A DNA stretch of 55,299 bases from a virus (taxonomy: Duplodnaviria; Caudoviricetes). A program made the position numbers and the translations under genes. The notes under the pieces were generated by a model. That model saw only the letters and a list, made by a program, of their open reading frames with translations, had not been told where the DNA came from and did no database searches. The stretch lies in IMG/VR virus record IMGVR_UViG_3300021982_000201, positions 1 through 55,299 of that record; one strand, given 5' to 3'. Shown here piece by piece: positions 3,741-42,972 of this stretch. Each line of letters starts with the position of its first letter. The stretch's first letter is position 1.

Positions 3741-4322
3741 TCAGTGCATAACCGGCATGTCTGGCATGCCTTCGGTGTGGATTTGCTCGATAAAGCCGTC
3801 GTGCAGCATGTTGAAGCCCTCCCGGCCCATAGCTGACAGCCTGAACCCGTATTCGTCGTCACAGACAACCATGTCCTGATACATGCGCAGCGCCAGCGGC
3901 AACCCTTCTTCTCTCCCGTATTTCTCAATGGCGCCAGCCTCAATATGGTTAGCGAGTGCAAATCGTTCCGGCCCTGGGTAGACGCTGATTGCGCCATGCT
4001 CCCCGGAGTAGATAACGGCCGTATCAACGCCGCCTTCGTCGTTCGGAATGTCGACAGTCCCGTTCTTCTCCCGCTCTTCGGTAATGAATACCGCGGCGAG
4101 CAACCAGCGCCAGACGATGATTTGCTGCTCGATAGTGAGCGAGAGCCAGTCGCTTTCCACCGCTTCCATGATGCAGGCCAGAATATTCATGCCGTCGGCG
4201 AGACGTTTGTCATAGCGTCCGTTATCCAGCTCTCGAATAGCGGCGGAGTAGCCAATAATCCTGTTTCCAGATATCCGGATGCCGGTTGACGTTGGTTCCG
4301 GGTTAAATGCTGTGTGATCCAT
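3741..4322 (-). CDS. Hypothetical phage protein
   Basis: 193-aa ORF in operon context. Confidence 0.75.
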   Translation of the reverse strand: MDHTAFNPEPTSTGIRISGNRIIGYSAAIRELDNGRYDKRLADGMNILACIMEAVESDWLSLTIEQQIIVWRWLLAAVFITEEREKNGTVDIPNDEGGVDTAVIYSGEHGAISVYPGPERFALANHIEAGAIEKYGREEGLPLALRMYQDMVVCDDEYGFRLSAMGREGFNMLHDGFIEQIHTEGMPDMPVMH

Positions 4323-5135: not shown

Positions 5136-5494
5136 CAGTTAATTCCTCCGCTGACATATTTCTCTTTTGCATGAGCGATTAATTCCGAGAAAATATCGTC
5201 AACAATCGCTTTACCGGTTTCGGTCAAATATTCGGTATGCCCGTTAATATCCAGACTGTTCATATACGCTTTGCGTAGAAAACTTTCTGCTTCTGAGCCA
5301 AATTCTGCGCGAACCTGCTTTTCGAATCGTTGCAGAAGCTTTTGCATTGACTCTTCGTTAATTTCGATAACCTGAATATTGTTATCCGGCATATTCACAG
5401 AGAGACAATAGCCGCCTGTTTTACGTTTCAGTCTGTGCAGGGTCGCATTGGCAATACGACGGCGATAAATATCAATTGCGCTTTGTCTTTCCAT
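5135..5494 (-). CDS. Hypothetical phage protein
   Basis: ORF with probable start MERQSA; operon packing. Confidence 0.75.
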   Translation of the reverse strand: MERQSAIDIYRRRIANATLHRLKRKTGGYCLSVNMPDNNIQVIEINEESMQKLLQRFEKQVRAEFGSEAESFLRKAYMNSLDINGHTEYLTETGKAIVDDIFSELIAHAKEKYVSGGIN

Positions 5495-6493: not shown

Positions 6494-6705
6494 TCTTCCA
6501 CCTCTTTATTTGCGCTGTTAATAGTTTTCTGCATTGAGTTAACCATGTCCCAAGCAATGCCAAGGCACCCCTCAATATCATCAGGTTCACAGTTGTTATC
6601 TTTTACAGCCTGACACAGCATCGACAAAAAATGACCAAGCTTAGTCAAACTATCGGAGCAGAAATTAACTTTTTCGGTTTCTGTTATCATCTTCATATTC
6701 ACCAT
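6490..6705 (-). CDS. Small helical phage protein, first gene of leftward early operon
   Basis: 71-aa ORF downstream of OL-like sites. Confidence 0.7.
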   Translation of the reverse strand: MVNMKMITETEKVNFCSDSLTKLGHFLSMLCQAVKDNNCEPDDIEGCLGIAWDMVNSMQKTINSANKEVEE

Positions 6706-6731
6706 GAGAGTGATTACTCGGTGAATTAAAG

Positions 6732-6779
6732 GTAACTAAAGTATCATTTTGGTGCAAGTGGTTTTGATACTTTATTTTC
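6732..6779. promoter_or_regulatory. OL-like operators (2 sites)
   Basis: GTAACTAAAGTATCA (6732-6746) and inverted GAAAATAAAGTATCA (6765-6779), matching three sites between cI and cro. Confidence 0.7.
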
Positions 6780-6790
6780 GCTACTTATCC

Positions 6791-6813
6791 AAAAAAAAGC
6801 CGGCATAGCCGGC
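6791..6813 (-). terminator. Intrinsic terminator after cI
   Basis: GCCGGC-3nt-GCCGGC hairpin followed by T8 on the minus strand. Confidence 0.75.
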
Positions 6814-6830: not shown

Positions 6831-7532
6831 TTAAAATATGTCCCACCTGGCATCAACAACCACACCGATTATTTCGCACTCATCATCTAGGGGGATCATA
6901 GGATATTGAGGATTGAGGGGTTTCAGATACCCAGCCCCCATGTCAGTTACATACTTTTTAAAAGTAACATCCCTGCTACTTCTCTTTTGCGCGATAACAT
7001 AGCAGTTTGAGTAAGGTTCTTTTTCTGGATCAATAAGTATGGACATACCTTCAGGAAAGGTAACCCCTGCATGCGAAGTCATAGAATCGCCTTTTACCTC
7101 AAGCCAAAAACCTCTTTCGCCAGCGTACTTTACAGAATCAATCCAGTTTTCAATATCATACATATTATAGTTATCGCCACATTGCGCAAATTGACCAGCT
7201 TGAACCCAGTTTAACTTCGGGTAGCTGTATCTGCGCTGTGGTTGCACGGTCTCGGTTACGTTATTAACCCAAGCTGTATCACTGATAGGTTTCTTTTGTG
7301 GTTGGGTTTGTGGCAGTTTTTCCTGCGTTCCCTTACCAGTCTGCAGCCACTCAGGTTCGCATCCAAGTGCGGATGAGATCTTAAAAAGAGTATTGCTGTT
7401 AAAGTTTTTTGTTAGTCCAAGCTCCGCTTTACTGATAGCTACCCGCGTGACACCTGCTTTTTTGGCAAGAGCCTCTTGCGTGAATCCTAACAATTCGCGT
7501 CGGCTTATCAACCGGTCTGCTAACGAACTCAT
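6831..7532 (-). CDS. cI: CI-like repressor (XRE HTH plus S24 autopeptidase)
   Basis: HTH TQEALAKKAGVTRVAIS; VQAG cleavage site; VKGDSM Ser and TFKK Lys. Confidence 0.93.
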   Translation of the reverse strand: MSSLADRLISRRELLGFTQEALAKKAGVTRVAISKAELGLTKNFNSNTLFKISSALGCEPEWLQTGKGTQEKLPQTQPQKKPISDTAWVNNVTETVQPQRRYSYPKLNWVQAGQFAQCGDNYNMYDIENWIDSVKYAGERGFWLEVKGDSMTSHAGVTFPEGMSILIDPEKEPYSNCYVIAQKRSSRDVTFKKYVTDMGAGYLKPLNPQYPMIPLDDECEIIGVVVDARWDIF

Positions 7533-8231: not shown

Positions 8232-9146
8232 ATGAGCAGTAAAATTCTTGGGAACGTCTGGGATGCCTGTGCGGCTCATGATGTTAAAGGCGCGAAGCTG
8301 ATGATCATGGCTCGTCTTGCTGATTATTCAAACGATGATGGCGTGAGCTACCCAAGCGTAGAGACCATTTGTCGCCAGTTGGGCTTAGGGGAAAGCACTG
8401 TGAGAACGGCAATCTCTGAGCTGGAGTCCGCTGGCTGGCTACTTCGTGAGTCCCGGCGTAAGGGGAACCGCAATACTTCCAACCTGTATCACCTGAATGC
8501 CGACCGTCTCGAAGCTCTGGCTCGGATTGAACGCGACAAGGTGACAGCCATGAAACAACAGCGTTGGGCAGAGACTTATTCTCACCCGTCAGATTCTGAA
8601 CCTTCAAAATCTGAACCGTCAGAATCTGGACCTTCAAACGGTTTTCACCCGTCAGATTCTGGCAAAAATGGCGTTTTGACCCGTCAGAATCTGACCCCAG
8701 ATCCACAAGTAAATTCAAAACATGATCCATCAGTAAATTCAAAACATGAATCACAAGATACTGGCGCATCGGCTGACGCCTCTGCACCGGTTCGCTCTGC
8801 AAAGCAGGATTATTCACCTGAGTTCGAAACAGCCTGGGAGTCCTACCCCAAACGCGCCGGTGGCAATTCCAAGGCGGGGGCTTTCAAAGCCTGGAAAGCT
8901 CGCCTGAAAGACGGGGTTAAGCCTGATGACATGCTGGCAGGCGTCAAGCGCTATGCAGCCTATGCCCGCGCAACCGGCAGCGTCGGAACCCAGTTCGTTA
9001 AGCAAGCTGCCACGTTCTTCGGTCCCGATCGCCACTTCGAAGAATCCTGGCAATCGCCATCCGCTCCCGGCGGTGGGCGCCCTGGCGTGCTGCCGGTATC
9101 TGGCTTCAGTGAGCAGAACTATGGCGAATCAAGTTGGGACTGGTAA
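8232..9146 (+). CDS. Phage replication initiator (N-terminal HTH, O-like)
   Basis: LADYSNDDG.SYPSVETI HTH, internal iterons, C-terminal FETAWESYPKR domain; upstream of loader and helicase. Confidence 0.88.
   Translation: MSSKILGNVWDACAAHDVKGAKLMIMARLADYSNDDGVSYPSVETICRQLGLGESTVRTAISELESAGWLLRESRRKGNRNTSNLYHLNADRLEALARIERDKVTAMKQQRWAETYSHPSDSEPSKSEPSESGPSNGFHPSDSGKNGVLTRQNLTPDPQVNSKHDPSVNSKHESQDTGASADASAPVRSAKQDYSPEFETAWESYPKRAGGNSKAGAFKAWKARLKDGVKPDDMLAGVKRYAAYARATGSVGTQFVKQAATFFGPDRHFEESWQSPSAPGGGRPGVLPVSGFSEQNYGESSWDW
8583..8750 (+). repeat. Iteron cluster / probable replication origin inside initiator gene
   Basis: CCGTCAGAWTCTG x4 plus AGTAAATTCAAAACATGA x2. Confidence 0.75.
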
Positions 9147-9161
9147 TTCAGGGGAAATGAC

Positions 9162-10040
9162 ATGTTAAATTTAAACCAACAAAAAGCGCGCCACGACCTG
9201 AAAGCCGATCGGGAGCGCCTTGCAGAAGAATTAAATTTTGCGCTGGAGCACAAACTCCCGTGGGGATACAGCGGCTGGAACTCAGGAAACACCGAGATTA
9301 CCTCCTGTGAAAAGCATGGAGATTTTGAGCGATTCACGCTGGTGGGAAAGGCTTTTCGCGGCGGTGAGAATTTCAAATATTCGCAATGTCCTGCATGCCT
9401 CCGTGCTCAACTGGCAGAGATTGACGCGGAGCTGCGTGCGTTACGCGTCGCTGACCTGATGGACAACGCAGGCATCGCCCGCCGTTTTGAAGAATGCGAA
9501 TTCGAAAACTATCGCCCGGTGAATCAGGGGGCTAGCAAAAATCTGGCCGGCTGCCGCCATTATGCCGAAAACTGGCCGCAGGTATTTGCGACCGGAAAGG
9601 GGCTTGTGATGACCGGCAACTGCGGTACAGGGAAAAACCACCTGGCCATCTCGACAGCGAAAGCCATCATCCGTAACCATCTCGCCAGGGTTGAAATTAC
9701 TGATGTGATGCGCGTTATGCGGGCCGTGAAAAGCACGTGGCGCCATAATTCCGAAACCACAGAAGACGGCGTGCTGGAACACTATGCATCGCTGGACCTG
9801 CTGATTATCGACGAGGTGGGGGTGCAGTTTGGTAGCGCTTCTGAACTGGCCATCCTGCAGGAGATCGTTAACGCCCGTTATGAAAGCGTGTTACCCACCA
9901 TCCTGATCAGCAATTTGACCTTCGAGCAGCTTAAGGACTCCATTGGTGAGCGCATCGTAGACCGGGTAACCAACGGTGGTCGCAATCGCCTGGCGTTCAA
10001 CTGGGAAAGCTTCCGTGGAAACGACGGGGTGCCTGAATGA
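9162..10040 (+). CDS. DnaC/IstB-like ATPase helicase loader
   Basis: Walker A GNCGTGKN, Walker B LLIIDEVG, TILISN, GERIVDR. Confidence 0.92.
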   Translation: MLNLNQQKARHDLKADRERLAEELNFALEHKLPWGYSGWNSGNTEITSCEKHGDFERFTLVGKAFRGGENFKYSQCPACLRAQLAEIDAELRALRVADLMDNAGIARRFEECEFENYRPVNQGASKNLAGCRHYAENWPQVFATGKGLVMTGNCGTGKNHLAISTAKAIIRNHLARVEITDVMRVMRAVKSTWRHNSETTEDGVLEHYASLDLLIIDEVGVQFGSASELAILQEIVNARYESVLPTILISNLTFEQLKDSIGERIVDRVTNGGRNRLAFNWESFRGNDGVPE

Positions 10041-11416
10041 CACCTGTCTGGAAAAATGAAGATCTGGAAGGAGCGGTTATCGGCGCCTTATTTTTGCGCG
10101 GTGCTGACCCTGAGGTACTGGATATCCTTTCCCGGCTGCCGGCGAGTACGTTCTCGGTGCGTCAGTATCGTGAAATCTATACCGGCATCTGTCGGCAAGC
10201 CCGCGGTGGAGGAGTTATTGATCCGCTGCTGCTCTGTGAGTCTCTGCCAGCGCTTCAGACCACCATTCTGGAGGCCACCCGCGTTAGTTGGGCGAAATCG
10301 GCCTTGGTCTCTTACATCGACGTTCTGCGTCGCAATGCCGGTGTCCGTGATGCAGAGGCCGCACTGGAAAAGGTGCTAAACCAGATTAAGAGTGCCAGCA
10401 ATGGTGATGCTGCGCTGGCTGCCCTGGAGTCCGTAAAACAGGTGGTTTCAGCCATCGATATTTCTGCAGATACTGTGCAGCCTGTCCATATTTCCGATCT
10501 GCTCACCGCCGTGGCTGACGAGGTAGAGTCCCGCAGCCAGGGGAGGGAGGAAACCCGTAGCCTGCTTACTGGCATTGAGGAGCTTGACGAGAAGACGGGT
10601 GGCATTGAATCTACGGATCTGGTGTTTATCGCGGCGCGTCCCTCGATGGGCAAAACAGAGCTGGCGCTGGATATTATCGAGAAGGTCTCTGCACAGGGGC
10701 ATGGTGTTCTGTTTTTCAGCATGGAGATGTCCGACACGCAGATCGCCAAACGCATGGTTTCTGCCGCTGGCGGTATGCCTGTATCCAGACTGAAGGCAGT
10801 CGAAAAGTTTGAGGATGAAGACTGGGCGCGATTCTTTAACGGCATGGAGCAACTGGTTAACCGCAGCGTTTGGATCACCGACGCAACTAACCTCAATATC
10901 GACCAGATTGAACAAACCGCAACCCGCTATAAGCTGGAGCATCCAGAAATTGCCCTGGTGGTCATCGACTATCTGGCGCTGATCAAAATTCAGAGCACGG
11001 CCCGCTACGACCTGGCTGTGGGGGAGCTGTCGAAGGGGTTGAAACGTCTCGCCAAAACCAACAAAACGCCAGTTATCGCCCTGAGTCAGTTATCCCGCGG
11101 GGTAGAATCTCGCCCCAACAAGCGCCCGATGAACTCTGACCTGAAGAACTCCGGGGAGATTGAGGCGGATGCTGACCTAATCCTGATGCTGTATCGCGAT
11201 GAAGTTTACGACCCGGAATCAGCCGCAAAGGGCGTAGCTGAAATCAACGTGACAAAACAACGCAACGGCGAACTGGGGACAATTTATCGCCGGTTCTATA
11301 ACGGGCATTTCCTGCCGATCGACCAGGAGGAAGCCCGCCAGCGCTCAACCCCCAAACCTAAACCGCAGCAACGTCGCTATACCAGAGGGAGCCAGGCAAA
11401 TAATGCAGATTTTTAA
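10037..11416 (+). CDS. dnaB: Phage replicative DNA helicase, DnaB family
   Basis: AARPSMGKT, VVIDYL, LSQLSR, SDLKNSGEIEADAD, KQRNG. Confidence 0.95.
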   Translation: MTPVWKNEDLEGAVIGALFLRGADPEVLDILSRLPASTFSVRQYREIYTGICRQARGGGVIDPLLLCESLPALQTTILEATRVSWAKSALVSYIDVLRRNAGVRDAEAALEKVLNQIKSASNGDAALAALESVKQVVSAIDISADTVQPVHISDLLTAVADEVESRSQGREETRSLLTGIEELDEKTGGIESTDLVFIAARPSMGKTELALDIIEKVSAQGHGVLFFSMEMSDTQIAKRMVSAAGGMPVSRLKAVEKFEDEDWARFFNGMEQLVNRSVWITDATNLNIDQIEQTATRYKLEHPEIALVVIDYLALIKIQSTARYDLAVGELSKGLKRLAKTNKTPVIALSQLSRGVESRPNKRPMNSDLKNSGEIEADADLILMLYRDEVYDPESAAKGVAEINVTKQRNGELGTIYRRFYNGHFLPIDQEEARQRSTPKPKPQQRRYTRGSQANNADF

Positions 11417-11771
11417 CATCACCCCAATGGGCAAGCCCCGACAAACCCGCGCCGACAAATGGAAACAACGAGAAGTAGTGCTTCGTTACCGGGCGTTCTG
11501 TGATGAGGTCAGGCTGAAGAAGGTCGTTATGCCAGAGGCGGGAAGTCACATTACCTTCATCCTGCCGATGCCGGCGAGCTGGAGCCAGAAAAAACGCGTA
11601 GCAATGAATGGTCAGGCTCATCAGCAAAAGCCAGATGCCGACAACATGATTAAAGCGTTGATGGATGCACTGTTTGCTGACGACGCGCATATCTGGGACT
11701 TTCGGGTAACAAAGCTCTGGGGTGAGACCGGACAAATTTTAATTTCTGATATCGGAGAAGTGGCCGCATGA
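11403..11771 (+). CDS. rusA: RusA-family Holliday junction resolvase
   Basis: KPDADNMIKALMDAL..DD motif. Confidence 0.9.
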   Translation: MQIFNITPMGKPRQTRADKWKQREVVLRYRAFCDEVRLKKVVMPEAGSHITFILPMPASWSQKKRVAMNGQAHQQKPDADNMIKALMDALFADDAHIWDFRVTKLWGETGQILISDIGEVAA

Positions 11772-12583
11772 AACTGGAAGCCTCCTTAAAACACTTCAGC
11801 CCACAAGGCATGCATATCAGCGACGACGTGAAAAGCACTTCGCCGAATCGCCTGAATGGCACAGACGTTATGACCGGGATCGGGGTGACCAGCAGCCGGG
11901 CACGGTTCGGGCTGGCGGCGTTCTTCGGTAAGGCTGGCATCAGTAGAACCGATGAGCAACTGGCCGTTCAGGCGCTGGCGCGACATGCCCTTGATACAGC
12001 ACCTAAAAACGTGCGGAAGGCCGCGGGTAAAGCGCTGGGGCGCTGCTGCCTGATTCTGGCGCAGTTTGCCTTTGCGGAGTATTCCCGTTCAGCGGAAACC
12101 ACGGGGGGCTGCAGGGTATGCCATGGCTCTGGCAAGATTGAAACCACTACCACAGATCGCAAAGTCACGTATCCGTGGGGCAAAGCGCCATATTGGGCGA
12201 AAAGGTCACGCGCTGTTCGTCCGTCCGACTGGGAGAAGTGGACCGAAGTAACAACCATCGTCAACGGTAAATGTGAAGCCTGTGACGGCAAGGGGAAGGT
12301 AAACGCCCGCTGTCGCTGCGGAGGCTCCGGCCAGGTACTGGACCGCAAAGCGACCAAAGAGCAGGGAGCGCCGGTATATAAAACCTGTGAGCGCTGTTCG
12401 GGGAATGGTTTCACCAGCGTCAAGTCAGCGAACGCACACCGGGCGATCCAGATGTACATACCTGATTTACATCAGTCCTCATGGTCACGCAACTGGAAGC
12501 CGTTTTATGAAGGGCTGGTGGATATGCTTCACAAAGGCGAGAGGCAGGCTGCTGCAGAATTCGAGAAGGCGACCAGTTACTGA
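11768..12583 (+). CDS. Late antiterminator Q-like protein
   Basis: MKLEASLKHFSPQG, multiple CxxCxGxG motifs, WSRNWKPFYE; position before late promoter. Confidence 0.88.
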   Translation: MKLEASLKHFSPQGMHISDDVKSTSPNRLNGTDVMTGIGVTSSRARFGLAAFFGKAGISRTDEQLAVQALARHALDTAPKNVRKAAGKALGRCCLILAQFAFAEYSRSAETTGGCRVCHGSGKIETTTTDRKVTYPWGKAPYWAKRSRAVRPSDWEKWTEVTTIVNGKCEACDGKGKVNARCRCGGSGQVLDRKATKEQGAPVYKTCERCSGNGFTSVKSANAHRAIQMYIPDLHQSSWSRNWKPFYEGLVDMLHKGERQAAAEFEKATSY

Positions 12584-13999: not shown

Positions 14000-14166
14000 A
14001 GGTGTATATCCCTTCAAATTTTGTGACTTATATTCTTGCACAATATCACAAGGAGTAATACGTCGCTAATCAGCGGCAACTGAAGACGTGCAAATGATCG
14101 TGAATCAGAGGACCGCACCCGGGAAGTGCGTGTTGAAAATACGATAACATTGGTGCTAGATTTTAG

Positions 14167-14287
14167 GTGTGGTGAATCCCCCTATGCGGAGGGGCGGAAA
14201 CAGCTTCAATGGAATCTTCATGATTCACTCGGACCGCAAGTCATGGTGGCTGACCAAAGGCTTACCGGGAGGCACCCGGCACCACAC
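14167..14287 (+). ncRNA. Candidate structured RNA in the late leader
   Basis: Terminal helix GTGTGGTG/CACCACAC enclosing CCCCT/AGGGG and CCGGG/CCCGG hairpins. Confidence 0.5.
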
Positions 14288-14418
14288 TCCATGTTTTTCT
14301 TGTTTTACGTACTATACTTTTTGTGTGGTTGCACCGTTTCGCTAAATCCTGAAATAACGTGCATAAGACGTTGTGGCAGAGCTGGCGGTGTAACCTCCAC
14401 TGAACAAACTACCATTTT

Positions 14419-14447: not shown

Positions 14448-14689
14448 GCTCAGACATATAAAGGCCGCGCATTTGTTCGGCCTTTTCTATTTGTGCCGCC
14501 AGAACGTCACTCACTCACTCTGTGTGTTGTCGTAAATCCATCTGGCGGCCATTCATACAGGCCCACTGTCTGACGGGCTCATAACCCAATCCGGGCAGGT
14601 TAAAGAGCGTGGGATTCCTAACCCCGCAATCGCTAACAGGGCCGCCTATTCCTTTCATCAGCGCCATCCGTAACCACGGAGGTGAGGCT

Positions 14690-14959
14690 ATGACCAAAAT
14701 GAGCACCATTTACAGCAGACTCTCATACGGCACCGGGACCGCGCTGACGGGCTGCGGTGTCTCAGCAAAGGCTTATGCCGATGTAGCAAAAACAGAGGTA
14801 TGGATTTTGGCCGACAAAGTGGCGGGAATGAGCCTGAGTGACTGGGCGATCGTTGTCGGTATAGCGTGCACTGTTATTACCTGCGGCGTGAACTGGTATT
14901 ACCGGCGTAAAGAGCGGGAGGATCGGCTGAATGGCTATGTCACCAAAGCTGAGGAATAG
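14690..14959 (+). CDS. Holin (class II-like, dual-start MTKM)
   Basis: Hydrophobic segment, VNWYYRRKE charged tail, M-T-K-M start, precedes endolysin. Confidence 0.85.
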
Positions 14960-15503
14960 CGTTATTGCTGCCGTTGGCGGTGGAGCAATTGCCATTGCGT
15001 CAGCACTCATCACCGGGCCGACCGGTAACGATGGTCTGGAGGGTGTGAGATACAACCCTTATCAGGACGTGGTGGGTGTCTGGACTGTCTGCTATGGCCA
15101 CACCGGCAAAGACATCATGCTCGGCAAGAAGTACACCGAGGCTGAATGCCGCGCACTGCTCAATAAAGACCTGAACAGCGTTGCCCGTCAGATCAACCCT
15201 TATATCAAGAAGCCGATCCCTGAAACGATGCGAGGTGCGCTGTACTCGTTCGCGTATAACGTTGGCGCTGGCAACTTCCAGACTTCTACACTGCTGCGAA
15301 AAATCAACCAGGGTGACCAGAAAGGTGCATGTGACCAATTGCGCCGTTGGACTTATGCCGGCGGTAAAGAATGGAAGGGCCTGGTAACGCGTCGCGAGAT
15401 TGAGCGCGAGGTGTGTTTGTGGGGCGAGAAACCTAAAAAGGCTGATGATGGCTTTGGGCCATTAAATCCCGGCGTACCTCCATCTGCTCCGGGAGTGTTC
15501 TGA
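14931..15503 (+). CDS. SAR endolysin, GH24 lysozyme (phage 21 R-like)
   Basis: Gly/Ala-rich N-terminal anchor, catalytic E-8x-D-5x-T (LEG..YQD..WT). Confidence 0.93.
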
Positions 15504-15853
15504 TGAGCCGCTTAACCGCCATTATCAGTGCGGTGGTTATCCTGCTGCTTTCCTGCATTTTCTCATGGCGTTCTGGCTGGAATTCTCACGCTGACCATAT
15601 CAACGCCCTGGCGGCGAAGAAAAAAGAGAAAGCCGAAAAGGTTATCCAGCCAGTAGAGCAAAAGGCCGCTGCCGCTACAGAAGAGGGCAAGGTCATCTAC
15701 CGAACCATAACCCGCGACGTGGTGAAATATGTCCAGTCTCCGAATCGTACTGTGTGCAGGTTTGACGATGATGCTGTGCAGCTGCGCCAGCGAGCTATCG
15801 ACGCTGCCAACGCCATCCCCGGATTTGATGAGCCCGCCTTGCAAGGCAAGTGA
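15503..15853 (+). CDS. Inner-membrane spanin (Rz-like)
   Basis: N-terminal TM plus periplasmic helical region after endolysin. Confidence 0.75.
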   Translation: MSRLTAIISAVVILLLSCIFSWRSGWNSHADHINALAAKKKEKAEKVIQPVEQKAAAATEEGKVIYRTITRDVVKYVQSPNRTVCRFDDDAVQLRQRAIDAANAIPGFDEPALQGK

Positions 15854-16337: not shown

Positions 16338-17114
16338 ATGGCAACACCGGACTGGGAGGCCATCGAGTCGGCATACCGGGCCGGAGTCCTTAGTCTCCGT
16401 GATATAGGCGAGCAATACGGCGTAACTGAAGGGGCCATCAGGAAGAGAGCCAAGAAGTTCGGGTGGGTACGCAAGGCCAGTACGCAGGTACGCAAAAATG
16501 GTACGCAAAGTGGTACGCAAAAGAGCAAGACGCGTACCAGCGAAAAGCCTGCCAGCGCTGGCCGTACGCATAAAAGTACGCAACCAAAAGCCGAACCTCC
16601 ACCAGATACGAAACCGATACGCGGGGTGCGTACCGATCCTCCGACTAACCCATTCCAGCGCGGGAATCAGGAAGCGGTAAAGCACGGCGGCTATGCACGT
16701 CGAATGCTTTTTAAAGATGACGTCATTGAAGATGCAAGGGTATTGCAACTGGAGGATGAGCTATTTCGACTCCGGGCAAATAACCTGACAGCTGCCGAGA
16801 ATATTGGCCGCTGGTTAACGCTGATGGAAGATGCTGAAAGTGATGAGGCACGGGATAAGTTGGCAGCGCTTATGGTTGCCGCTGACAAAGCAATGATGCG
16901 TAACACCGTACGTATTGAGTCCATCGTGGGAACTCTTGCCACGGTCGGGAAAATATTTGCTGATACTGATTACCGCAAAGCCGCCACTGACAAGGTATCA
17001 CTGGAGGCAGATCGCTTGCGCCGTGATGCTGGCATAGATGATGGTAACGGAGAGCGTGACCTCAATGACTTCTACTCTGACATCCAAACCGACGCTGAAT
17101 CCGGTTCTGCGTAG
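16338..17114 (+). CDS. terS: Terminase small subunit
   Basis: PDWEAIESAYRAG HTH, GNQEAVKHGGY motif, directly before terL. Confidence 0.88.
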   Translation: MATPDWEAIESAYRAGVLSLRDIGEQYGVTEGAIRKRAKKFGWVRKASTQVRKNGTQSGTQKSKTRTSEKPASAGRTHKSTQPKAEPPPDTKPIRGVRTDPPTNPFQRGNQEAVKHGGYARRMLFKDDVIEDARVLQLEDELFRLRANNLTAAENIGRWLTLMEDAESDEARDKLAALMVAADKAMMRNTVRIESIVGTLATVGKIFADTDYRKAATDKVSLEADRLRRDAGIDDGNGERDLNDFYSDIQTDAESGSA

Positions 17115-18465
17115 CTTCTGGACGACGCAGGCGCGTAACAAAGTGCTTTATGGTGGGCGGTCATCGTCAAAATCGTGGGATGCCGCCGGAATTGCAATAT
17201 TCCTGGCAAATAAATATACCCTCCGTTTCTGCTGCGCCCGTCAGATCCAGAACAAAATTGAGGAGTCGGTATATACCCTGCTCAAAATCCAGATTGACCG
17301 GTTTGGCCTGCGGCATCGTTTCCGTGTTCTGAACAACAAAATCATTAACCGGGTGACCGGTTCTGAGTTCGTGTTTTACGGCCTCTGGCGCAATATCGAA
17401 GAGATTAAGTCGCTGGAGGGGATTAGCGTGCTGTGGCTGGAAGAGGCCCACGCGTTGACGGAGTATCAGTGGAAGATACTGGAGCCTACCATCCGTAAGG
17501 AGGGCTCAGAGTGCTGGTTTATCTTTAACCCCGGACTGGTCACCGATTTCGTGTGGCGTAACTTTGTGGTCGATCCACCAGAAGATACGCTGATACGCAA
17601 AATCAACTACGACGAAAACCCGTTCCTTTCCGACACCATGCTGAAGGTTATCGAAGCCGCCAGGCGGCGTGATCCAGACGGGTTTAAGCACGTTTACGAA
17701 GGCGTACCGGAATCTGATGATGATGCAGCCATTATCAAACTGTCATGGATAGAGGCAGCGGTAGACGCGCACAAGGTTCTTAATTTCGAGCCAAGCGGGC
17801 GTAAGCGTATTGGCTTCGACGTCGCCGACAGTGGCGCGGATAAATGCGCTAACGTCTATCGCCATGGTTCTGTCGTGTACTGGGCTGACGAGTGGAAGGC
17901 GAAAGAGGATGAATTACTTAAGAGCTGCCAGCGCACTTACCAGGCAGCGCTGGAGCGCGATGCTGATATCGTCTACGACTCGATAGGCGTCGGGGCGTCT
18001 GCTGGCGCTAAATTCTCAGAAATTAACGAGGATCGTAAGCGCGAAAACATGAACGCATCACGCATCAACTATCAGCGATTCAATGCTGGCGCAGGCGTGA
18101 ACGAGCCGGACGATGAATATATTGGCATTCCGAACAAGGATTTTTTCGCCAACCTCAAAGCGCAAGCCTGGTGGCTGGTAGCGGATCGCTTCCGTAATAC
18201 CTTCAACGCGGTAAAGAACGGTGAGCAGTACCCGGTAGATGAGCTGATAAGCATCGATTCATCCTGTCCGCTGCTGGAAAAGTTAAAGCTAGAGCTGACC
18301 ACCCCGCACCGTGATTTTGACAAGAATGGTCGCGTAATGGTGGAGAGCAAGAAAGACCTCGCTAAGCGTGATGTTCCGTCACCGAACGTGGCTGATGCAT
18401 TCATTATGGCATTCGCCCCGACTGATACGGCAATGGATATCTGGGAAGCCCTGGGAAGAGGTTAA
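17065..18465 (+). CDS. terL: Terminase large subunit (PBSX family)
   Basis: YGGRSSSKS Walker A, WLEEA Walker B, IFNP, GFDVA nuclease, SPNVADA. Confidence 0.95.
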   Translation: MTSTLTSKPTLNPVLRSFWTTQARNKVLYGGRSSSKSWDAAGIAIFLANKYTLRFCCARQIQNKIEESVYTLLKIQIDRFGLRHRFRVLNNKIINRVTGSEFVFYGLWRNIEEIKSLEGISVLWLEEAHALTEYQWKILEPTIRKEGSECWFIFNPGLVTDFVWRNFVVDPPEDTLIRKINYDENPFLSDTMLKVIEAARRRDPDGFKHVYEGVPESDDDAAIIKLSWIEAAVDAHKVLNFEPSGRKRIGFDVADSGADKCANVYRHGSVVYWADEWKAKEDELLKSCQRTYQAALERDADIVYDSIGVGASAGAKFSEINEDRKRENMNASRINYQRFNAGAGVNEPDDEYIGIPNKDFFANLKAQAWWLVADRFRNTFNAVKNGEQYPVDELISIDSSCPLLEKLKLELTTPHRDFDKNGRVMVESKKDLAKRDVPSPNVADAFIMAFAPTDTAMDIWEALGRG

Positions 18466-18609
18466 ACATCTGGAAATAGCCACCTCACGCCGAAAAATCC
18501 CTATTCACTTTTTGACCCTGTTTATGCACGTTTTATTCACGCACTTTCTGCTACTTATCCTGATGAAATAAGCCTTTGGCGGACATTTCATCATGGGAGG
18601 GATCCGGCT

Positions 18610-18637
18610 GGTGCGGGTAACAGTCATTATGTTAAAT
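18610..18637 (+). other. dif-like XerC/XerD recombination site
   Basis: GGTGCGGGTAA-CAGTCA-TTATGTTAAAT versus E. coli dif GGTGCGCATAA-TGTATA-TTATGTTAAAT. Confidence 0.8.
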
Positions 18638-18701
18638 CGGGCCATTTTTTAACAAATTATCTGATCCGTCACGGGTATCGAAAAACCGGAGCATCATCAC
18701 C

Positions 18702-20153
18702 ATGGCGAAAAAAACGGGACGAGTCGCCACGGCGGATTCGTACGATAACTTTATGGCCCGCGTCGGCATGCAGCAGCCTAACCAGCACGCTGCATCGACA
18801 TATCGGGCGAACTATACCAGCCGTAACCGGTTGCTGATTGAGTATGCGTACCGCTCCTCTTGGATTATTGGCGCCGCTGTCGATTCGAAAGCGGACGACA
18901 TGACCAAAAAGGGCGTTCGCATTACCAGCGAGATTGACCCGAAACGTCGGGGAGTGCTGGAGTCACGCTTTGATGAGCTACAACTGTGGGACTGCATCAA
19001 CGAGACGTTGAAATGGTCCCGGCTATATGGCGGGGCTGTTGCACTGATCCTTATTGAAGGGCAGGCACCGTTAACGCCTTTGATGTTGGATAAGGTCGGC
19101 AAGGGAAGTTTCAAAGGGCTGGCCGTCCTCGACCGCTGGATGATTAATCCGCAACTGACCAGGCGCATAAAAGCGCTTGGGCCCAACCTCGGCAAGCCAG
19201 AGTTCTACGATATTGTGACGACGGCGCAGGGGCTGCCTGCCTGGACAGTTCATCACAGTCGCCTGATCCGCATGGATGGCGTGAAACTGCCGTACCAGCA
19301 GAAAATCACCGAAAACGAATGGGGTATGTCCATTGTTGAGCGTATTTTCGACCGTCTGACATCCTACGACAGCACCAGTGTTGGCGCAGCCCAGCTCGCG
19401 TATAAGGCGCATCTTCGTACAGTTAAGATTAAAAAGTTACGTGAAATTATCGCTTTGGGCGGCAAGCCATTCGAAGCGCTGATCAAAAACATGGAAATGG
19501 TCCGCCAGTTCCAGACGAATGAGGGGATGTCCCTCTTTGATTTGGAGGATGAATTTGAAACTCATTCTTATTCTTTCGCGGGTCTCTCTGACCTCCTGGG
19601 GGAATTTAAAGAGGATATCGCGGGGGCTGTTGGCATTCCTCTTGTCCGTCTGTTCCGCCAGTCACCGAAGGGTTTTTCAACCGGTGATGCTGACCTCGCA
19701 AACTACTACGATGACGTGGGGACGCTGCAGGAGCGAGATTTACGGCCTCACATCCGCCTGTTATTCGATGTCCTGCATCGCTCAGAGTTTGGCGAGCCGT
19801 TGCCGGAAGATTTCACCTTTGAGTTTAACCCCCTGTGGCAGATGAGCGACACCGATCGCTCTACGGTGGCGACTAACACGACTACCGCTCTGGCAACTGC
19901 TGTGCGTGATCTGGGAATGTCACCGGCTGCCGCGCTGACCGATTTGCGCGAACTGGCGGACGTTACCGGCATCGGTGCTTCAATTAGTGATGAGGATATC
20001 CAGAATGCGGCGAAACAGTGGGAGGAGATTGAATCTCAAACCGAACCTCCGCCGCCGGTCGGAGCGCCAGTATCAGAAAAGCCTACTGGCGATAGTCGAC
20101 CAGATAAATCAGATCGTCACCGGTTCATACGATGGTTCACAGGCAAGCGCTGA
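18702..20153 (+). CDS. Portal protein (DUF1073-type)
   Basis: Position after terL; WSRLYGGA, GIPLVRLF..SPKG, NYYD motifs. Confidence 0.88.
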   Translation: MAKKTGRVATADSYDNFMARVGMQQPNQHAASTYRANYTSRNRLLIEYAYRSSWIIGAAVDSKADDMTKKGVRITSEIDPKRRGVLESRFDELQLWDCINETLKWSRLYGGAVALILIEGQAPLTPLMLDKVGKGSFKGLAVLDRWMINPQLTRRIKALGPNLGKPEFYDIVTTAQGLPAWTVHHSRLIRMDGVKLPYQQKITENEWGMSIVERIFDRLTSYDSTSVGAAQLAYKAHLRTVKIKKLREIIALGGKPFEALIKNMEMVRQFQTNEGMSLFDLEDEFETHSYSFAGLSDLLGEFKEDIAGAVGIPLVRLFRQSPKGFSTGDADLANYYDDVGTLQERDLRPHIRLLFDVLHRSEFGEPLPEDFTFEFNPLWQMSDTDRSTVATNTTTALATAVRDLGMSPAAALTDLRELADVTGIGASISDEDIQNAAKQWEEIESQTEPPPPVGAPVSEKPTGDSRPDKSDRHRFIRWFTGKR

Positions 20154-20757
20154 TGGCATTGCCAGAACGCTCATCGACTACTCTGGCGTGATTGATGACT
20201 GGGCCGAAATGGTCGGCAAGAAGATGTTCGCCCAGGTGGAGCAGGAAGAGTGGAACCAGTGGCGGTCTGTCTCTGAAGAGATTTCTGTGGGCCTACGAGA
20301 TGTGGTCAGCAATACCCCGATCGGGATGGTGGCCCAGGATATTGTCTACCGCCAGATTCGCTATATGAAGTCCCTGCCGTTAGAGGCTGCGGGCCGAGTA
20401 AGGGAAATCCAGGAGCGTGCGATACAGGCCGTTATCAATGGTGAGCGCCCGGATCAACTATACGAGATGATTATGCAATCCGGCGACGTTGCAGCCAGTA
20501 GGGCGCGAATGATAGCGCGTACGGAGATTGGCCGAGCTACCGGAGCATTGACACAGGCGCGAGCTCTGGCTGTAGGCTCCGAGGGCTACTGGTGGCGCAT
20601 TGAAGGCGCTGGAACCCGACCATCACATCGCAAGATGAAAGATAAGTTTGTGCGCTGGGATAACCCGCCAACGCTCGACGGCATGACTGGCCACGCAGGG
20701 TGTTTGCCTAACTGCAAATGCTGGCCGGAAGTACAGGTGCCGGGGCCGAGAAAATAA
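20005..20757 (+). CDS. Minor head / head morphogenesis protein (Mu gpF-like)
   Basis: RARMIARTE, TRPSH, PNCKC; start uncertain (19975-20029). Confidence 0.88.
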   Translation: MRRNSGRRLNLKPNLRRRSERQYQKSLLAIVDQINQIVTGSYDGSQASADGIARTLIDYSGVIDDWAEMVGKKMFAQVEQEEWNQWRSVSEEISVGLRDVVSNTPIGMVAQDIVYRQIRYMKSLPLEAAGRVREIQERAIQAVINGERPDQLYEMIMQSGDVAASRARMIARTEIGRATGALTQARALAVGSEGYWWRIEGAGTRPSHRKMKDKFVRWDNPPTLDGMTGHAGCLPNCKCWPEVQVPGPRK

Positions 20758-20795
20758 TACATAATTTGTGGATATCAACTAAGTAGGGATGCCAC

Positions 20796-21215
20796 ATGAC
20801 AATAAAAATTGAGCGGTTAAACGGATTTGAGTACCACTATGAGAAGCACCCACTGGGTGGAACATGGGTTTATTATTGGTATTTCAGACCAGTGGGGCAA
20901 ACTGAGTGGTGCAATTTTTACTTGCCAACTGGCAACGCTAAAAAAGCGGATATGATTAGCTTTTTAAAGAACCCAGAGGATTCCGCCGCCCACTATAAGT
21001 CTTGGTTTGAAACCGTCAGTGATGTTGAGAATGCAGAGCTAAACCTGAGCAGAGCTCAAGCTCATCTTGAAAGGGTTTCTGATCCGGAATGGGGAGGGCG
21101 TGGTAATAACCCAGACAAGGATGCGAGGATAAAAAGACAGGCCCTCGATGATGTTGATAGCGCTCTTCGAAAGTTGGAAAAAGCTAAACGAATACGACAA
21201 CAGATAACCAAATAA
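20796..21215 (+). CDS. Moron, hypothetical protein
   Basis: AT-richer 139-aa ORF inserted in head cluster, followed by terminator. Confidence 0.75.
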   Translation: MTIKIERLNGFEYHYEKHPLGGTWVYYWYFRPVGQTEWCNFYLPTGNAKKADMISFLKNPEDSAAHYKSWFETVSDVENAELNLSRAQAHLERVSDPEWGGRGNNPDKDARIKRQALDDVDSALRKLEKAKRIRQQITK

Positions 21216-21218
21216 CTG

Positions 21219-21243
21219 AGGCCGCCATTGAGCGGCTTTTTTA
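21219..21243 (+). terminator. Intrinsic terminator after moron
   Basis: GCCGC/GCGGC stem plus T6. Confidence 0.7.
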
Positions 21244-21268
21244 TTGCCCGCAATTCAGCAGGTAAATC

Positions 21269-22462
21269 ATGAAATATTTCTTCAAAACCCGCCTTGGGAA
21301 TACGCGATTCCAGCTTGCTGACGGCTCAGTGCTGTTTAAAGACGTACCCATAGGGCGCACAGGCGAGCAGGAATACGACAAAACCGAGCGGCCAGAGCTA
21401 ACCCCTGACGTGCGCGGGAAGATTATCGTACGGCGGACGCCTGAAGAGGTGTTCAGTGAGCGATCCATTGCCTCTTTCGAAGGTATGGCCGTAACGATTG
21501 GTCACCCTCGTGATTTCAATGGCGACATTATTTTTGTTGCTCCTGAGAACTGGCGGCTACTGGCGCATGGACACATTCAGAACGTCAGGCGCGGGGAGGG
21601 CGATAAGTCCGATCTGCTGCTGGCAGACGTCATTGTTAAAAGCCCCGAAGGGCTTCAAGCCATTGATGCTGGCGATGACGAGGTTAGCTGTGGATACGAT
21701 GCTGACTACGAAGAAATCTCACCCGGCCTCGCGATTCAGTCTGCGATAACCGGTAACCATCTGGCCCTTGTCCCAAACGGGCGGGCCGGTTTCCGTTGTA
21801 AAATAGGGGATGCTATGCCTAGCACAACTAAAAACTGGTTTACCCGGCTCATGAAGGCCCGTAAAACCAACGACGCCGCTGAAATGGCGAATCTTGTTGA
21901 TAACGCGCCTGACAGCGTCACAGGTGATGACGACGTGAGTTCTTCGCTTACGCCAGGTGGAGTGGTGATTAACCTTTCACCGCAAAGCCCGTTACCTGCG
22001 CCTACTTTGCCACTCACTGGCGATGAAGATGAAGAAATCCCCGCATGGGGGAAAGCGCTGATCGAAGCGTTTTCCAAACTGACCCCGGCAGCGGCAACAG
22101 GTGATGAAGATGAAGAAGAGAAGGACGAGAAAGAGGGCGCCGTTACTGGTGATGCCGCTTATCGTGCCGATCTGATTCAGCCTGGTATCCAGTTACCATC
22201 CTCGGCAAAGCCTACTGCGTTTAAACGTTCAGTGCTGGCAACCGCTGATCAGGTAATGGTCCGCTCTATCGTGGGTGATGCTGATATCACCAAACTGAAA
22301 AAAGCCACTGTTGACATGGCCTTTACGGCAGTGTCAGAGCTGGCTAAGAACCGCAATACCGCAGCTAAAACCGTTGACGGTTTCCGCTCCATCAACTCCA
22401 ACACCACCAAAACCATCGCGGAGATTAACGCCGCCGCGAAGGAACTCTGGGCTAAACACTAA
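21269..22462 (+). CDS. Prohead protease/scaffold (DUF2213-type)
   Basis: VTIGHP, EVSCGY, NHLALV..GRAG; TGD repeats in C-terminal scaffold part. Confidence 0.85.
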
Positions 22463-22979: not shown

Positions 22980-23921
22980 ATGCCAATGACATTTGACCAG
23001 GCAACAGTCGACAGTTCTGGTACCTTTCTCATCGGAGAACTGGAGCGCCTCGACCAGACGCTGAATCTGCCGCTGACCTCGCAGACGTGGAGCCGCGATA
23101 TTCAGCTGCGAGAAGATGTATCTATCGCGGACGAAATCAGCTCCTTCACCAACACCACCTTTGCTGCTGCAGGTACGCCTAACGCCAACGGCAAAAACTG
23201 GATCAGCCCGCTGGCAACCGCTATTGCTGGCATCAGCGTTGATATCGAGAAAAAGGGCTTCCCGCTGGAGTTGTGGGGCATGGAGCTTGGCTGGACGATT
23301 ATCGAACTGAATGCTGCCGCACAGGTTGGGCGCCCTATCGATACCCAGAAGTATGACGGCATGCAGCTGAAATGGAACATGGATACCGACGAGCAGGTTT
23401 ATATCGGTGACTCAGCAAAAGGTGCTAAAGGCCTACTTAACCTGTCTCAGGTGACGCCGACCAACGCGACCAAAACCTGGGCCACTTCAACCGTTGACGA
23501 AATCCGTGCCAGCATTAACCAGGTGCTGAGCAATGCATGGGCTCGTTCCGCTTACTCTAAAGTACCGGAAGATTTGCTGATCCCGCCTGAGCAGTATTCG
23601 TTCATTGCTAGCACCATCGTTTCCAGCGCCGGTAACCAGTCTCTGCTGACCTACCTGGAAACGAACACCATCGCCTATCACCAGAACGGCAAGCCTCTGA
23701 ACATTCGTCCGGTTAAATGGATGAAGGGCCGCGGTGTGGGCGGTACAGATCGCATGGTGGCCTACACCAACGATAAGAAGTTTGTGCGCTTCCCGATGGT
23801 TCCGCTGCAGAGCGTCCCGATCCAGTATCGCGGCCTGTACCAGCTAGTGACCTACTACGGCAAGTTGGGTGCGGTTGAGCCGGTTTACCCGGAAACCCTG
23901 AACTACATGGATGGCATTTAA
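22980..23921 (+). CDS. Major capsid protein (DUF2184-type)
   Basis: FLIGELERLD, GLLN, RMVAY, YMDGI C-terminus; followed by terminator. Confidence 0.9.
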   Translation: MPMTFDQATVDSSGTFLIGELERLDQTLNLPLTSQTWSRDIQLREDVSIADEISSFTNTTFAAAGTPNANGKNWISPLATAIAGISVDIEKKGFPLELWGMELGWTIIELNAAAQVGRPIDTQKYDGMQLKWNMDTDEQVYIGDSAKGAKGLLNLSQVTPTNATKTWATSTVDEIRASINQVLSNAWARSAYSKVPEDLLIPPEQYSFIASTIVSSAGNQSLLTYLETNTIAYHQNGKPLNIRPVKWMKGRGVGGTDRMVAYTNDKKFVRFPMVPLQSVPIQYRGLYQLVTYYGKLGAVEPVYPETLNYMDGI

Positions 23922-34002: not shown

Positions 34003-34355
34003 TGCGCTACAGACGTGAAGACGATGACGGTGATTACACCTTTGGCCAGGGCGATGATACCTGGCTGGTAAACTCTCCTGAGACCGTCGCGCAGGCTATT
34101 AAAACGCGCTTTCTGCTCTGGTACGGTCAGTGGTTCCTCGATACCACCGAGGGAACGCCCTGGATTCAGTCCGTACTGGGTAAGCAAAAGCCTGACACCT
34201 ACAACCTGGCTATCCGCCGGCGCATCCTGGAAACGCAGGGCGTGAGCGCAATCACCGAATTTAACACCGAAGTTGACGGCCGTACGCGCCGTGTAACGTT
34301 CACAGCAACGGTAGAAACCATCTACGGGACAACCACAGTAACCTCGGAGGCGTAA
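34002..34355 (+). CDS. Baseplate wedge / sheath initiator
   Basis: GQWFLDTTEGTPW motif. Confidence 0.8.
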   Translation: MRYRREDDDGDYTFGQGDDTWLVNSPETVAQAIKTRFLLWYGQWFLDTTEGTPWIQSVLGKQKPDTYNLAIRRRILETQGVSAITEFNTEVDGRTRRVTFTATVETIYGTTTVTSEA

Positions 34356-40357: not shown

Positions 40358-40780
40358 TTGTTCGTGAACGGTAAGAAAACAATAAGTTTTGAGCAATTTT
40401 TAACTATTAACAGCAATCTTGTTTCCATCTCAGATACATGGGCTGACTTGTGGGCGTTAATTTTTCACACGGGTTTAAGCGCTGGAAGGCTGCTGAGTAT
40501 TCGATATGATGAAATTGATGGTGACTTGATACTGATACGAAAACAGGGTCACCTGAAGGAGCTACGTGTTAAATCAACCCCTCCAGTGGAGGCGATGATT
40601 GCTCGTAGAAGAGAACGCTATCCAGAAGATGTTTATTTATTTCAGAGTCATTCTAACCGTGTGAAGTACCATCGCCGGCCGGTCACTATAATTGCTTTCA
40701 ACGCCGCTTTACGTCGCGCCGCTAGATCATTACCAGACGTTAACGTAAGCAGTAGTAGCGCGAGAAACATACCGGACTAA
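40358..40780 (+). CDS. Truncated tyrosine-recombinase-like protein lacking catalytic residues
   Basis: LIFHTGLSAGRLLSIRYDEI resembles box I without Arg; YLFQS; no HxxR or Tyr box. Confidence 0.6.
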   Translation: MFVNGKKTISFEQFLTINSNLVSISDTWADLWALIFHTGLSAGRLLSIRYDEIDGDLILIRKQGHLKELRVKSTPPVEAMIARRRERYPEDVYLFQSHSNRVKYHRRPVTIIAFNAALRRAARSLPDVNVSSSSARNIPD

Positions 40781-41631: not shown

Positions 41632-42446
41632 ATTCACTCCTGTATGAATTAAAGTGTCTAAGATATAGCCTGGCGGGAGAGGGAATGCGAACCGCAACTC
41701 GGCTCAGGACAACAAAACAATGAATCCGCAGCTGCAATCCTTTGCGACCTGGCTGGCGGGTAGCGGGCGCGCTGCTTTCGAAGGGCGCTGGCAACCTCTG
41801 CTACTTGGGCGTTTAGCCAGTAAACTCACGTTACCTGGCGCCAGTAATCAGGCGGCGGGAAGGGACTAATGGGCGATGAGCATTATTGTCTGCCGTATTT
41901 AAATATACCGGCTGAATGAAATGCCAATATTTCATTGCACTTACTGATCATTAAGGTCCCGTCAGGTTTAATAATCAAAAGAGGACATCTGAGAAAAATT
42001 ATTTGTAACTTTTATACTAATCCTGTCTGTCATTTACTATGGTTATAGTAATTTCCGGCTCAGGACTCATGAACAGTTTGTGAACGGTAAAAATAATTCT
42101 ATTTTTCTTTCTGTTATCAGCCATCTTCTCAATACTGGAAATAATCATTATTACCGTTCTATATTGATTCTTATCAACTAAACAGGTTTGTTGAGATGTA
42201 AGTTCATTATTTATTCATTAGGCAGGCGTAAATCCTGCCCTTATTGTAAGTAAATGGTTGGTATTTCATATTGGCTTTATTCGTCTGATGTTTTGATTTT
42301 TTTATATTTGGATTAAAATGCTTAAGGAAAGTCTTGCATTGAACTTTAGAACTGACAGGTTGATATTTTCTGATGCTTTGCTCTACTATGGTTTTGTCAT
42401 CAAACGTCGTTATTTTAACAAATATTCCTCAAGGGAAGGGACCGCT

Positions 42447-42938: not shown

Positions 42939-42972
42939 ACGGCGTGTGTTATTTAATGGATTAACCGGGAAT

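Follow-up and report, generated by a model that had tools for sequence, protein, structure and literature searches.

The 236-bp gap between the large terminase gene terL and the portal gene of a temperate tailed phage (IMG/VR record IMGVR_UViG_3300021982_000201, one virus record of 55,299 bases that was analysed at full length and is termed the window) contains a sequence closely resembling the Xer recombination sites of plasmids. On balance, we favour the view that this gap is a complete site of the psi/cer type, at which the host recombinases XerC and XerD (XerCD) would resolve circular multimers of the phage genome. This view draws on the sequence anatomy of the gap, its conservation, its similarity to psi of plasmid pSC101 and one natural deletion with its crossover in the cores of two such sites. 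Sequence comparison places the cassette in a widespread family found in temperate enterobacterial phages.

A psi-like Xer core in the terL-portal gap

The 28-mer GGTGCGGGTAACAGTCATTATGTTAAAT, located on the plus strand at 18610-18637, has the organization GGTGCGGGTAA-CAGTCA-TTATGTTAAAT, corresponding to a XerC arm, a 6-bp spacer and a XerD arm. Compared to dif of E. coli K-12, as taken from NC_000913.3 (GGTGCGCATAA-TGTATA-TTATGTTAAAT), the XerC arm agrees at 9/11 positions, the spacer at 1/6 and the XerD arm at 11/11. Compared to psi, found in pSC101 as GGTGCGCGCAA-GATCCA-TTATGTTAAA, the corresponding values are 9/11, 3/6 and 10/11; the third reference site, cer, was found in ColE1. The 28-mer occurs once in the record at up to three mismatches, with 0/100 dinucleotide shuffles giving a match, and neither a pattern search nor the family profile detected a second copy in the window. 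At 18621-18663, the spacer and XerD arm form an imperfect inverted repeat (16 nt, 75% complementary) with the conserved sequence TTTAACAAATTATCTG further downstream.

The similarity to psi extends beyond the core. The profile of the class to which the window element belongs (type A) matched pSC101 at 6752-6811, namely the core and ~30 nt upstream of it, through profile positions 130-189 (E value 4.5e-10), and the profile of a second class (type B) was collinear with psi over 173 nt (6637-6809; E value 2.2e-7). According to the available text of a survey of enterobacterial Xer recombination sites, the accessory DNA of cer and psi lies on the XerC side, in the ~150-200 bp adjoining the XerC arm (10.1101/2024.04.05.588136). 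The window site shares this organization: its core is composed of XerC arm, 6-bp centre and XerD arm, and conserved accessory DNA, ~145 nt long and non-coding, lies on the side of the XerC arm, in addition to ~28 nt downstream of the core.

An initial annotation, made from the window sequence, had proposed a dif-like XerC/XerD site with cer/psi-like upstream accessory DNA, lying as a single copy in a 236-bp terL-portal gap of an integrase-encoding phage. The core scores, the ~145 nt of conserved DNA on the XerC side and the psi-profile match agree with this proposal. We reproduced the position of the 28-bp site, its arm scores (11/11 for XerD and 9/11 for XerC), the difference of its spacer from dif and the coordinates of the gap (terL ends at 18465 and the portal gene starts at 18702); the integrase gene lies at 869-2068, and pattern and family-profile searches gave one copy only.

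Anatomy of the cassette

The segments of the cassette and its two neighbouring genes are as follows.

17038-18465, plus strand: terL, the 5' neighbour of the cassette (PHROG terminase large subunit, E value 1.2e-84)
18466-18701, plus strand: the whole 236-bp intergenic cassette, a type A Xer element (the family profile spans 18460-18702, E value 1e-63)
18501-18540, plus strand: accessory block with the direct repeats CTATTCA (18501-18507), TTATGCA (18522-18528) and TTATTCA (18533-18539)
18541-18609, plus strand: middle and core-proximal accessory DNA (GGACATTTCA ... GGGAGGGATCCGGCT), the proximal ~30 nt of which align with psi upstream of its core
18610-18620, plus strand: XerC-arm-like half site GGTGCGGGTAA, 9/11 to dif and 9/11 to psi, variable in the family
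18621-18626, plus strand: 6-bp central region CAGTCA, with the family variants CAGTCA, CGGTCA, CGACCA, CGTACA, GAACCA, GAACCC and others
18627-18637, plus strand: XerD-arm-like half site TTATGTTAAAT, 11/11 to dif
18638-18665, plus strand: conserved downstream flank including TTTTTTAACAAATTAT (18645-18660), kept across divergent copies
18702-20153, plus strand: portal gene, the 3' neighbour of the cassette (PHROG portal protein, E value 8.1e-164)

In the type A element of the window, a left-end motif is followed by three direct repeats, a variable middle, a conserved core-proximal stretch, the core and the conserved TTTTTTAACAAATTAT flank. Among 44 unique junction sequences, 29/38 columns of the accessory block and 16/28 columns of the downstream flank are invariant. 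In most loci, the upstream gene ends 145-160 nt ahead of the core. The gap contains open reading frames at 18368-18571, 18505-18645 and 18632-18769, none of which matched a PHROG family.

The ATTCAC/ATGCAC motifs that the initial annotation had seen at about 18500-18540 are present as ATTCAC, ATGCAC and ATTCAC at 18503-18508, 18524-18529 and 18535-18540, with start-to-start distances of 21 and 11 bp. Their reading as half ARG boxes is not supported: the best match to TGAAT-N4-ATTCA in the accessory region scores 8/10, a score reached by 151 of 2000 shuffles, compared to 9/10 for the box of ColE1 cer. The motifs belong to TTATKCA direct repeats instead of an ArgR palindrome, and the type A element of the window has these repeats in place of an ArgR or ArcA site at a set distance from the core. 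The ARG and ArcA consensus motifs used for scoring were those of general knowledge. The 11-bp phasing of the type A repeats recalls the sites of response regulators, and TTATNCA resembles part of the DnaA box; both are resemblances only.

Conservation and distribution of the family

Over its full length, the gap is 83.9-85.6% identical to sequences in 13 phage records, of which 12 are from Klebsiella phages and one is a Wanchaivirus record. Among 5426 complete E. coli genomes, 190 contain a match; the 193 matching places are all chromosomal, and the one match with inspected annotation sits inside a prophage between terL and portal. In PLSDB, 12 records match the gap, nine of which are K. pneumoniae "plasmids" of 37-42.6 kb; two of these nine were inspected, and both are whole phage genomes with an integrase, one recorded as circular and the other as linear. 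Four E. coli phages have a more distant copy (69% identity) between their Q and holin genes. In an alignment of the phage copies, including the distant Q-holin ones, CATTATGTTAAAT is invariant and the flanks diverge. Family matches come from Klebsiella, Escherichia and Enterobacter, and also, by deposited host labels, from Yersinia and Elizabethkingia records. A pattern scan of genome contigs for host range gave the full element in 2 of 130 loci among the matches listed, the rest being mainly Acinetobacter dif-like sites and chance matches. A genuine plasmid from Pantoea, encoding ParA and RepA, includes an intergenic region with a related core and flank. At 5294-5327 of the Pantoea soli plasmid (L007), a second, isolated match to the XerD arm plus flank lies 1.3 kb from the full Xer-like site of the plasmid.

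As hits of core-seeded BLAST and pattern searches are open to bias, two further samples were drawn, one with the portal protein alone and the other with the upstream repeat block alone. The portal sample comprised 80 viral-contig loci with portals 84-99% identical to that of the window, in which elements were called by the family profile within 2.5 kb. At least one element was found in 75/80 loci, always on the portal strand, and five had none in range. The element lies at the terL-portal junction in 61 loci, of which 60 have a dif-like core with an exact XerD arm and one (L272) has lost the core; in 11 loci it lies instead 1.6-2.0 kb upstream of the portal gene, and in three the sole element lies ~2.3 kb past the portal start, which corresponds to the MuF-protease gap. 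The distance between terL and portal is −1 to 5 bp in 18 loci without a junction element, compared to mostly 233-238 bp in those with one. These two size classes mark the element as a discrete cassette. In the two-element loci, the spacers of both cores differ in 17/17 cases, which is consistent with selection against cross-reaction or with simple lineage effects.

The repeat-block sample comprised at least 117 loci matching TTTATGCA-N3-TTTATTCA. Among the matches listed, a dif-like core lies exactly 69/70 or 80 nt downstream in 91/117, and 89 of these 91 cores have the exact XerD arm, whereas the XerC arm (GGTGCGGGTAA, AGTGCGGGTAA, AGGGCGTGTAA, GGTTCCTATAA and others) and the spacer vary; the remaining 26 are without a core and look like chance matches of the 16-base pattern. 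The comparison of arms and spacers in relatives, put forward as a check in the initial annotation, gave kept arms and varying spacers. The spacing is discrete as well: TTATKCA-N4-TTATKCA is present in 123/188 unique elements and begins 88 nt ahead of the core in 74 of them and 98 nt ahead in 47. The 10-nt steps in both measurements indicate a constraint at the level of DNA and of helical phase; a difference of one helical turn, with nothing between, points to a constraint on the face of the DNA, as a wrapped nucleoprotein complex would impose.

The gene contexts of the family are terL-portal, terS-terL, MuF-protease, Q-holin and a few others. Among the 57 typed loci whose flanks are long, the element shares its strand with the downstream gene in 56 cases and with the upstream gene in 52. 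The ends of the cassette lie outside the core in relatives (L253-L332), and the junction that it occupies differs among phages with near-identical portals; Xer recombination at the core can therefore not explain the relocation between junctions.

Several individual copies deserve description. Yersinia phage YP3 (L463) has three elements in direct orientation at 15475-15502, 17876-17903 and 34307-34334, all with the core GGTGCGGGTAA-GAACCC-TTATGTTAAAT. Two of the copies are near-identical over ~265 bp, with sharp ends at the neighbouring genes, and the third has a type A left half and a type B right half joined upstream of the core. Tail genes occur at two separate places of the YP3 record, and a misassembly is possible. 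In E. coli FDAARGOS_433 (L468, 3466-3687), and also in L272, the terL-portal cassette has conserved flanks, and a sequence shorter by 15 nt takes the place of the XerC arm, the spacer and half of the XerD arm. In the phage-like Enterobacter plasmid pE76_003 (L008, 76.9 kb), the Q-holin cassette is split by an insertion of the ISKpn21 family into its accessory part and its core (1559-1718 and 3997-4091).

Two classes of accessory DNA

The 123 core-pattern sites in viral contigs comprise 66 of type A, 25 of type B, 24 partial ones (nine with the host dif spacer) and eight with a core only. Type B elements have the spacers GAACCC, GAACCA or GAGTCA and lie mostly between the MuF and protease genes. 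Of the elements having the repeat TGTTAT-GAAAA-TGTTGT, 36/38 have it 99 nt from the core. Its TGTT-N7-TGTT pattern is a 9/10 match to the ArcA direct-repeat consensus, and psi has a 9/10 ArcA-type repeat at 95 nt, on the strand opposite to that of type B. In the window, the MuF-protease gap (20796-21215) is filled by an open reading frame of 139 residues without a PHROG family; 20 of the 80 portal-sampled relatives have a type B element in this gap, 17 of them with a second element upstream.

A natural recombinant between two sites

A crude typing of the left and right halves of 195 elements flagged one (L014) with a type A left half and a type B right half. Its record (G001) is a provirus of 38,762 bases that is 58% complete by CheckV. 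The terL gene of G001 (18495-19916) is 97% identical to that of the window, with one in-frame TGA, and is followed by the hybrid element and then by a protease/scaffold gene (20179-21372; 89% identical). No match to the portal or MuF gene was found across the whole record. A close relative, L316, with flanks 95.1% and 96.8% identical to those of L014, still has both sites, 2300 bp apart and in direct orientation. In the three-way alignment, L014 equals site 1 through the spacer CAGTCA and equals site 2 from the first base past the XerD arm, so the crossover falls within 13 bp, namely the last two bases of the spacer and the XerD arm. This interval presumably includes the position at which XerD would cut. 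In this single case, the deletion is consistent with the outcome expected of Xer recombination between both sites. No further hybrid junction in one piece was found in the 397 matching E. coli genomes or the 12 matching plasmid records.

Proposed role of the site

We propose that the 28-bp core is the target of host XerC and XerD, with the ~145 nt of accessory DNA on its XerC side. When two direct copies are present on one supercoiled circle, the accessory DNA would, by analogy with psi, wrap PepA and a second DNA-binding factor, the latter binding the three phased TTATKCA repeats instead of an ArcA or ArgR box. Strand exchange by XerC and then by XerD would convert dimers and higher multimers of circular phage DNA, either the replicating form or an excised episome, to monomers. 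Sites of the psi type are described, in the available text of one report, as acting only between direct repeats on one negatively supercoiled molecule, with XerC acting first and XerD completing the reaction (10.64898/2026.02.23.706985). This rule fits multimer resolution and disfavours both the cyclisation of linear DNA and integration. The extrachromosomal records of 37-42.6 kb (nine K. pneumoniae records in PLSDB; of the two inspected, one circular and one linear) also count for multimer resolution.

A number of points weigh against this role. Multimers are the packaging substrates of tailed phages, so resolving them offers no obvious benefit during lytic growth. The cassette is always promoter-proximal in the late operon and co-oriented with it, neither of which a pure resolution site predicts. 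In YP3, three direct copies have identical cores and two of these copies, separated by 2.4 kb, flank essential head genes, and many E. coli chromosomes keep two sites; recombination between chromosomal copies must therefore be rare. Loss of the core from copies that keep their flanks (L272 and the E. coli variant) means that the core is dispensable. The accessory block of the window does not qualify as an ARG box (8/10), and as an ArcA repeat it is not a good match either (7/10). Accessory-only profiles, from which the core and 15 proximal nt had been removed, score psi no higher than 100 shuffled controls; homology of the distal accessory DNA to psi is not demonstrated above shuffles. This null result fits the low mutual homology of the known accessory sequences, which, in the available text of the survey, are identified through a suitably spaced ArgR or ArcA site (10.1101/2024.04.05.588136). 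Finally, the deletion in G001 could also have arisen by slippage on the 13-bp identity.

There is a small chance that the cassette is a selfish passenger, that is, a plasmid-derived Xer site that spreads by ordinary recombination, brings the phage little or no benefit and causes occasional deletions. The two gap sizes among close relatives (233-238 bp versus −1 to 5 bp), the near-identical and sharp-ended copies at three places in YP3, the persistence of copies with destroyed cores and the deletion of portal and MuF would all suit such a passenger. Nevertheless, 75/80 close relatives retain at least one copy, and selection on function is indicated both by the XerD arm, exact even in highly divergent copies, and by a spacing that is tied to the helical repeat; neither transposition machinery nor a target duplication was seen. 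It is unlikely that the function is a regulatory one, in which XerCD, PepA and a repeat-binding factor would form a nucleoprotein roadblock or switch that ties head-gene expression to the state of the host, with recombination secondary or absent. Such a complex would account for the confinement of the cassette to the first part of the late operon (Q-holin, terS-terL, terL-portal and MuF-protease), for its co-orientation (downstream gene on the same strand in 56/57 loci) and for the terminator-like hairpin between core and next gene in many variants; XerC has also been proposed, in the available text of one report, as a possible transcriptional regulator of the phage-tail-like pyocin genes of P. 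aeruginosa (PMC9431673). However, the spacer fixed at 6 bp, the psi-like sequence next to the core and the position of the accessory DNA beside the XerC arm make up the anatomy of a recombination site, neither a plus-strand promoter nor a terminator is predicted in the window gap, and a recombinant with its crossover in the cores exists. The co-orientation may reflect mere exchange between collinear late operons. We give similarly little weight to a further reading, in which the sites would be orthogonal host-Xer families at the boundaries of packaging and head modules, one of ArcA type and one of a new TTATKCA class read by a host or phage factor, where XerCD would not only keep circles monomeric but also cut out or swap whole modules. 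If this were true, Xer would drive the inactivation of prophages and mosaic exchange among phages, gated by host physiology, as exemplified by the loss of portal and MuF in G001.

The initial annotation had offered two other uses for the site. One is the cyclisation of terminally redundant DNA after injection, as proposed for loxP of P1, in which the site, being close to the packaging start, would be present at both ends of the first headfuls and XerCD would circularise the molecule. In all four contexts the terminase genes are no more than a few kb away, no gene of the Exo/Bet/Erf type was recognised in the early region of this prophage, and the relatives of its terL are annotated in RefSeq as PBSX-family terminase, which may suggest headful packaging. 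Even so, cyclisation seems quite unlikely: injected linear DNA would be a poor substrate for psi-type sites, which are reported in the available text to need direct repeats on one negatively supercoiled molecule (10.64898/2026.02.23.706985), Mulock, a relative with the same cassette, has Exo and Bet as well (PMC6856289), and the Q-holin position lies upstream of terS. The other is a second, IMEX-like route of integration into host dif, which is very improbable despite the dif-like core and the precedent of filamentous and other small phages that integrate in this way. The spacer agrees with dif at only 1/6 positions, the prophage around the intact site encodes an integrase of its own and adjoins host genes, and accessory sequences favour intramolecular reactions; moreover, all 193 E. 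coli matches are chromosomal, the one inspected being inside a prophage between terL and portal, and no relatives flanked by hybrid dif/phage cores at the chromosome terminus were seen. It is just as hard to believe that the resemblance arose by chance inside a late promoter or a structured RNA. Two observations would point that way, namely that the E. coli variant occupies the Q-holin interval, the place of late promoters, and that the gap has one promoter-like match, on the minus strand. However, promoter matches number one against 0.8 expected, and another function would not be expected to keep 20/22 matching arm positions at exact spacing throughout the family.

RNA candidates and metatranscriptome contigs

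A structured RNA in the gap was considered and rejected, as the fold z-score is 0.34, the consensus fold of −1.51 kcal/mol has 0 compensatory pairs in 19 sequences, and Rfam gave no match in the gap. A promoter or terminator in the gap was likewise rejected, with no terminator found and the one minus-strand promoter-like match at chance level. The RNA evidence consists of contigs only, from 22 listed runs. The gap is covered in four metatranscriptome contig sets, with one contig spanning from terL to portal and no joints; such contigs cannot show transcript ends. In three of the four sets, contigs end at 18635 and others begin at 18606. We infer that this 30-base overlap on the core (18606-18635), a length presumably set by the word size of the assembler, is a branch point of the assembly graph, at which phage variants share the core and differ on both sides.

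Gene map of the prophage

By gene content, the window represents a temperate prophage of the lambdoid type. Its recognised genes, besides terL and portal, are the following.

869-2068: integrase
6831-7532, minus strand: cI-like repressor
8232-11416: replication genes
11768-12583: Q-like antiterminator
14609-15853: holin, endolysin and Rz
16338-17114: terS
19975-20757: MuF-like head morphogenesis gene
21269-22462: protease/scaffold-like gene
22980-23921: major head protein

The sole Rfam match in the window is the small RNA STnc100 at 14138-14328 (73.4 bits against a gathering score of 47), in the interval from the Q-like gene to the holin gene. A 140-residue integrase fragment (PHROG 1, positions 268-388) is encoded at 40358-40780, near the right end of the prophage. 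The region beyond it, 42318-55285, likely consists of host genes, including one for a ClpV-like ATPase of 886 residues; our guess is that they form a type VI secretion cluster.

Significance

Xer sites that have accessory sequences are a known feature of plasmids, and the use of Xer by phages is known mainly from small phages without an integrase that integrate at dif. Here, a site of the plasmid type recurs in the late operons of integrating tailed phages. The full-text literature searched, with subscription journals and supplements outside the search, yielded no account of tailed phages with a psi/cer-type site. The genome announcement of Mulock does not mention the Xer cassette (PMC6856289), and the main text of the enterobacterial survey, as far as available, has no word beginning with "phage" (10.1101/2024.04.05.588136). 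Activity of the site would mean that XerCD and PepA of the host, together with a response-regulator-like factor, act on phage DNA, with possible effects on lysogenisation, episomal carriage, the decay of prophages and rearrangements between prophages in one chromosome. An active site would also point to a class of accessory factor new for Xer sites.

Comparison with known recombination sites

Among the known systems, psi shares with the window a 28-bp core whose 6-bp central region ends in CA, arms that agree at 9/11 and 10/11 positions, ~30 nt of similar sequence upstream of the core and non-coding accessory DNA on the XerC side. Type B elements further resemble psi in the ArcA-type direct repeat, which lies 95 nt from the core in psi and 99 nt in type B. 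They differ in setting, as psi resides on a small plasmid and works with XerCD, PepA and ArcA, whereas the window site, known here from its sequence, lies in the late operon of an integrating tailed phage of ~40 kb. They also differ in the accessory block, where psi has an ArcA-type repeat and the type A element of the window has three TTATKCA direct repeats. The cer site of ColE1, used by XerCD with PepA and ArgR, resembles the window site in its dif-like core, in the accessory DNA on the XerC side and in a factor-binding position ~90-115 nt from the core. However, cer has a palindromic ARG box (9/10) at 113 nt, compared to a best score of 8/10 in the window that is not significant, and its central region has 8 bp rather than 6 bp.

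The chromosomal dif site, at which XerCD is activated by FtsK, has arms that match those of the window at 9/11 and 11/11 and likewise a 6-bp spacer, but five of the six spacer positions differ. In addition, the window site has conserved flanks and lies in a prophage late operon, not at the replication terminus. The attachment sites of IMEX phages such as CTXphi are phage-borne dif mimics, as the window core appears to be, and are used by host XerCD. These small phages lack an integrase and integrate at dif, whereas the window site is intact, single and internal to a tailed prophage that has an integrase, and it carries accessory DNA of the plasmid type. The loxP site of P1, together with Cre, keeps circles monomeric and has been proposed to cyclise redundant ends; like the window site, it is a recombination site of a temperate tailed phage near the packaging genes. 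P1 encodes its own recombinase and lives as a plasmid, whereas the phage of the window would borrow XerCD from the host and integrates by its own integrase.

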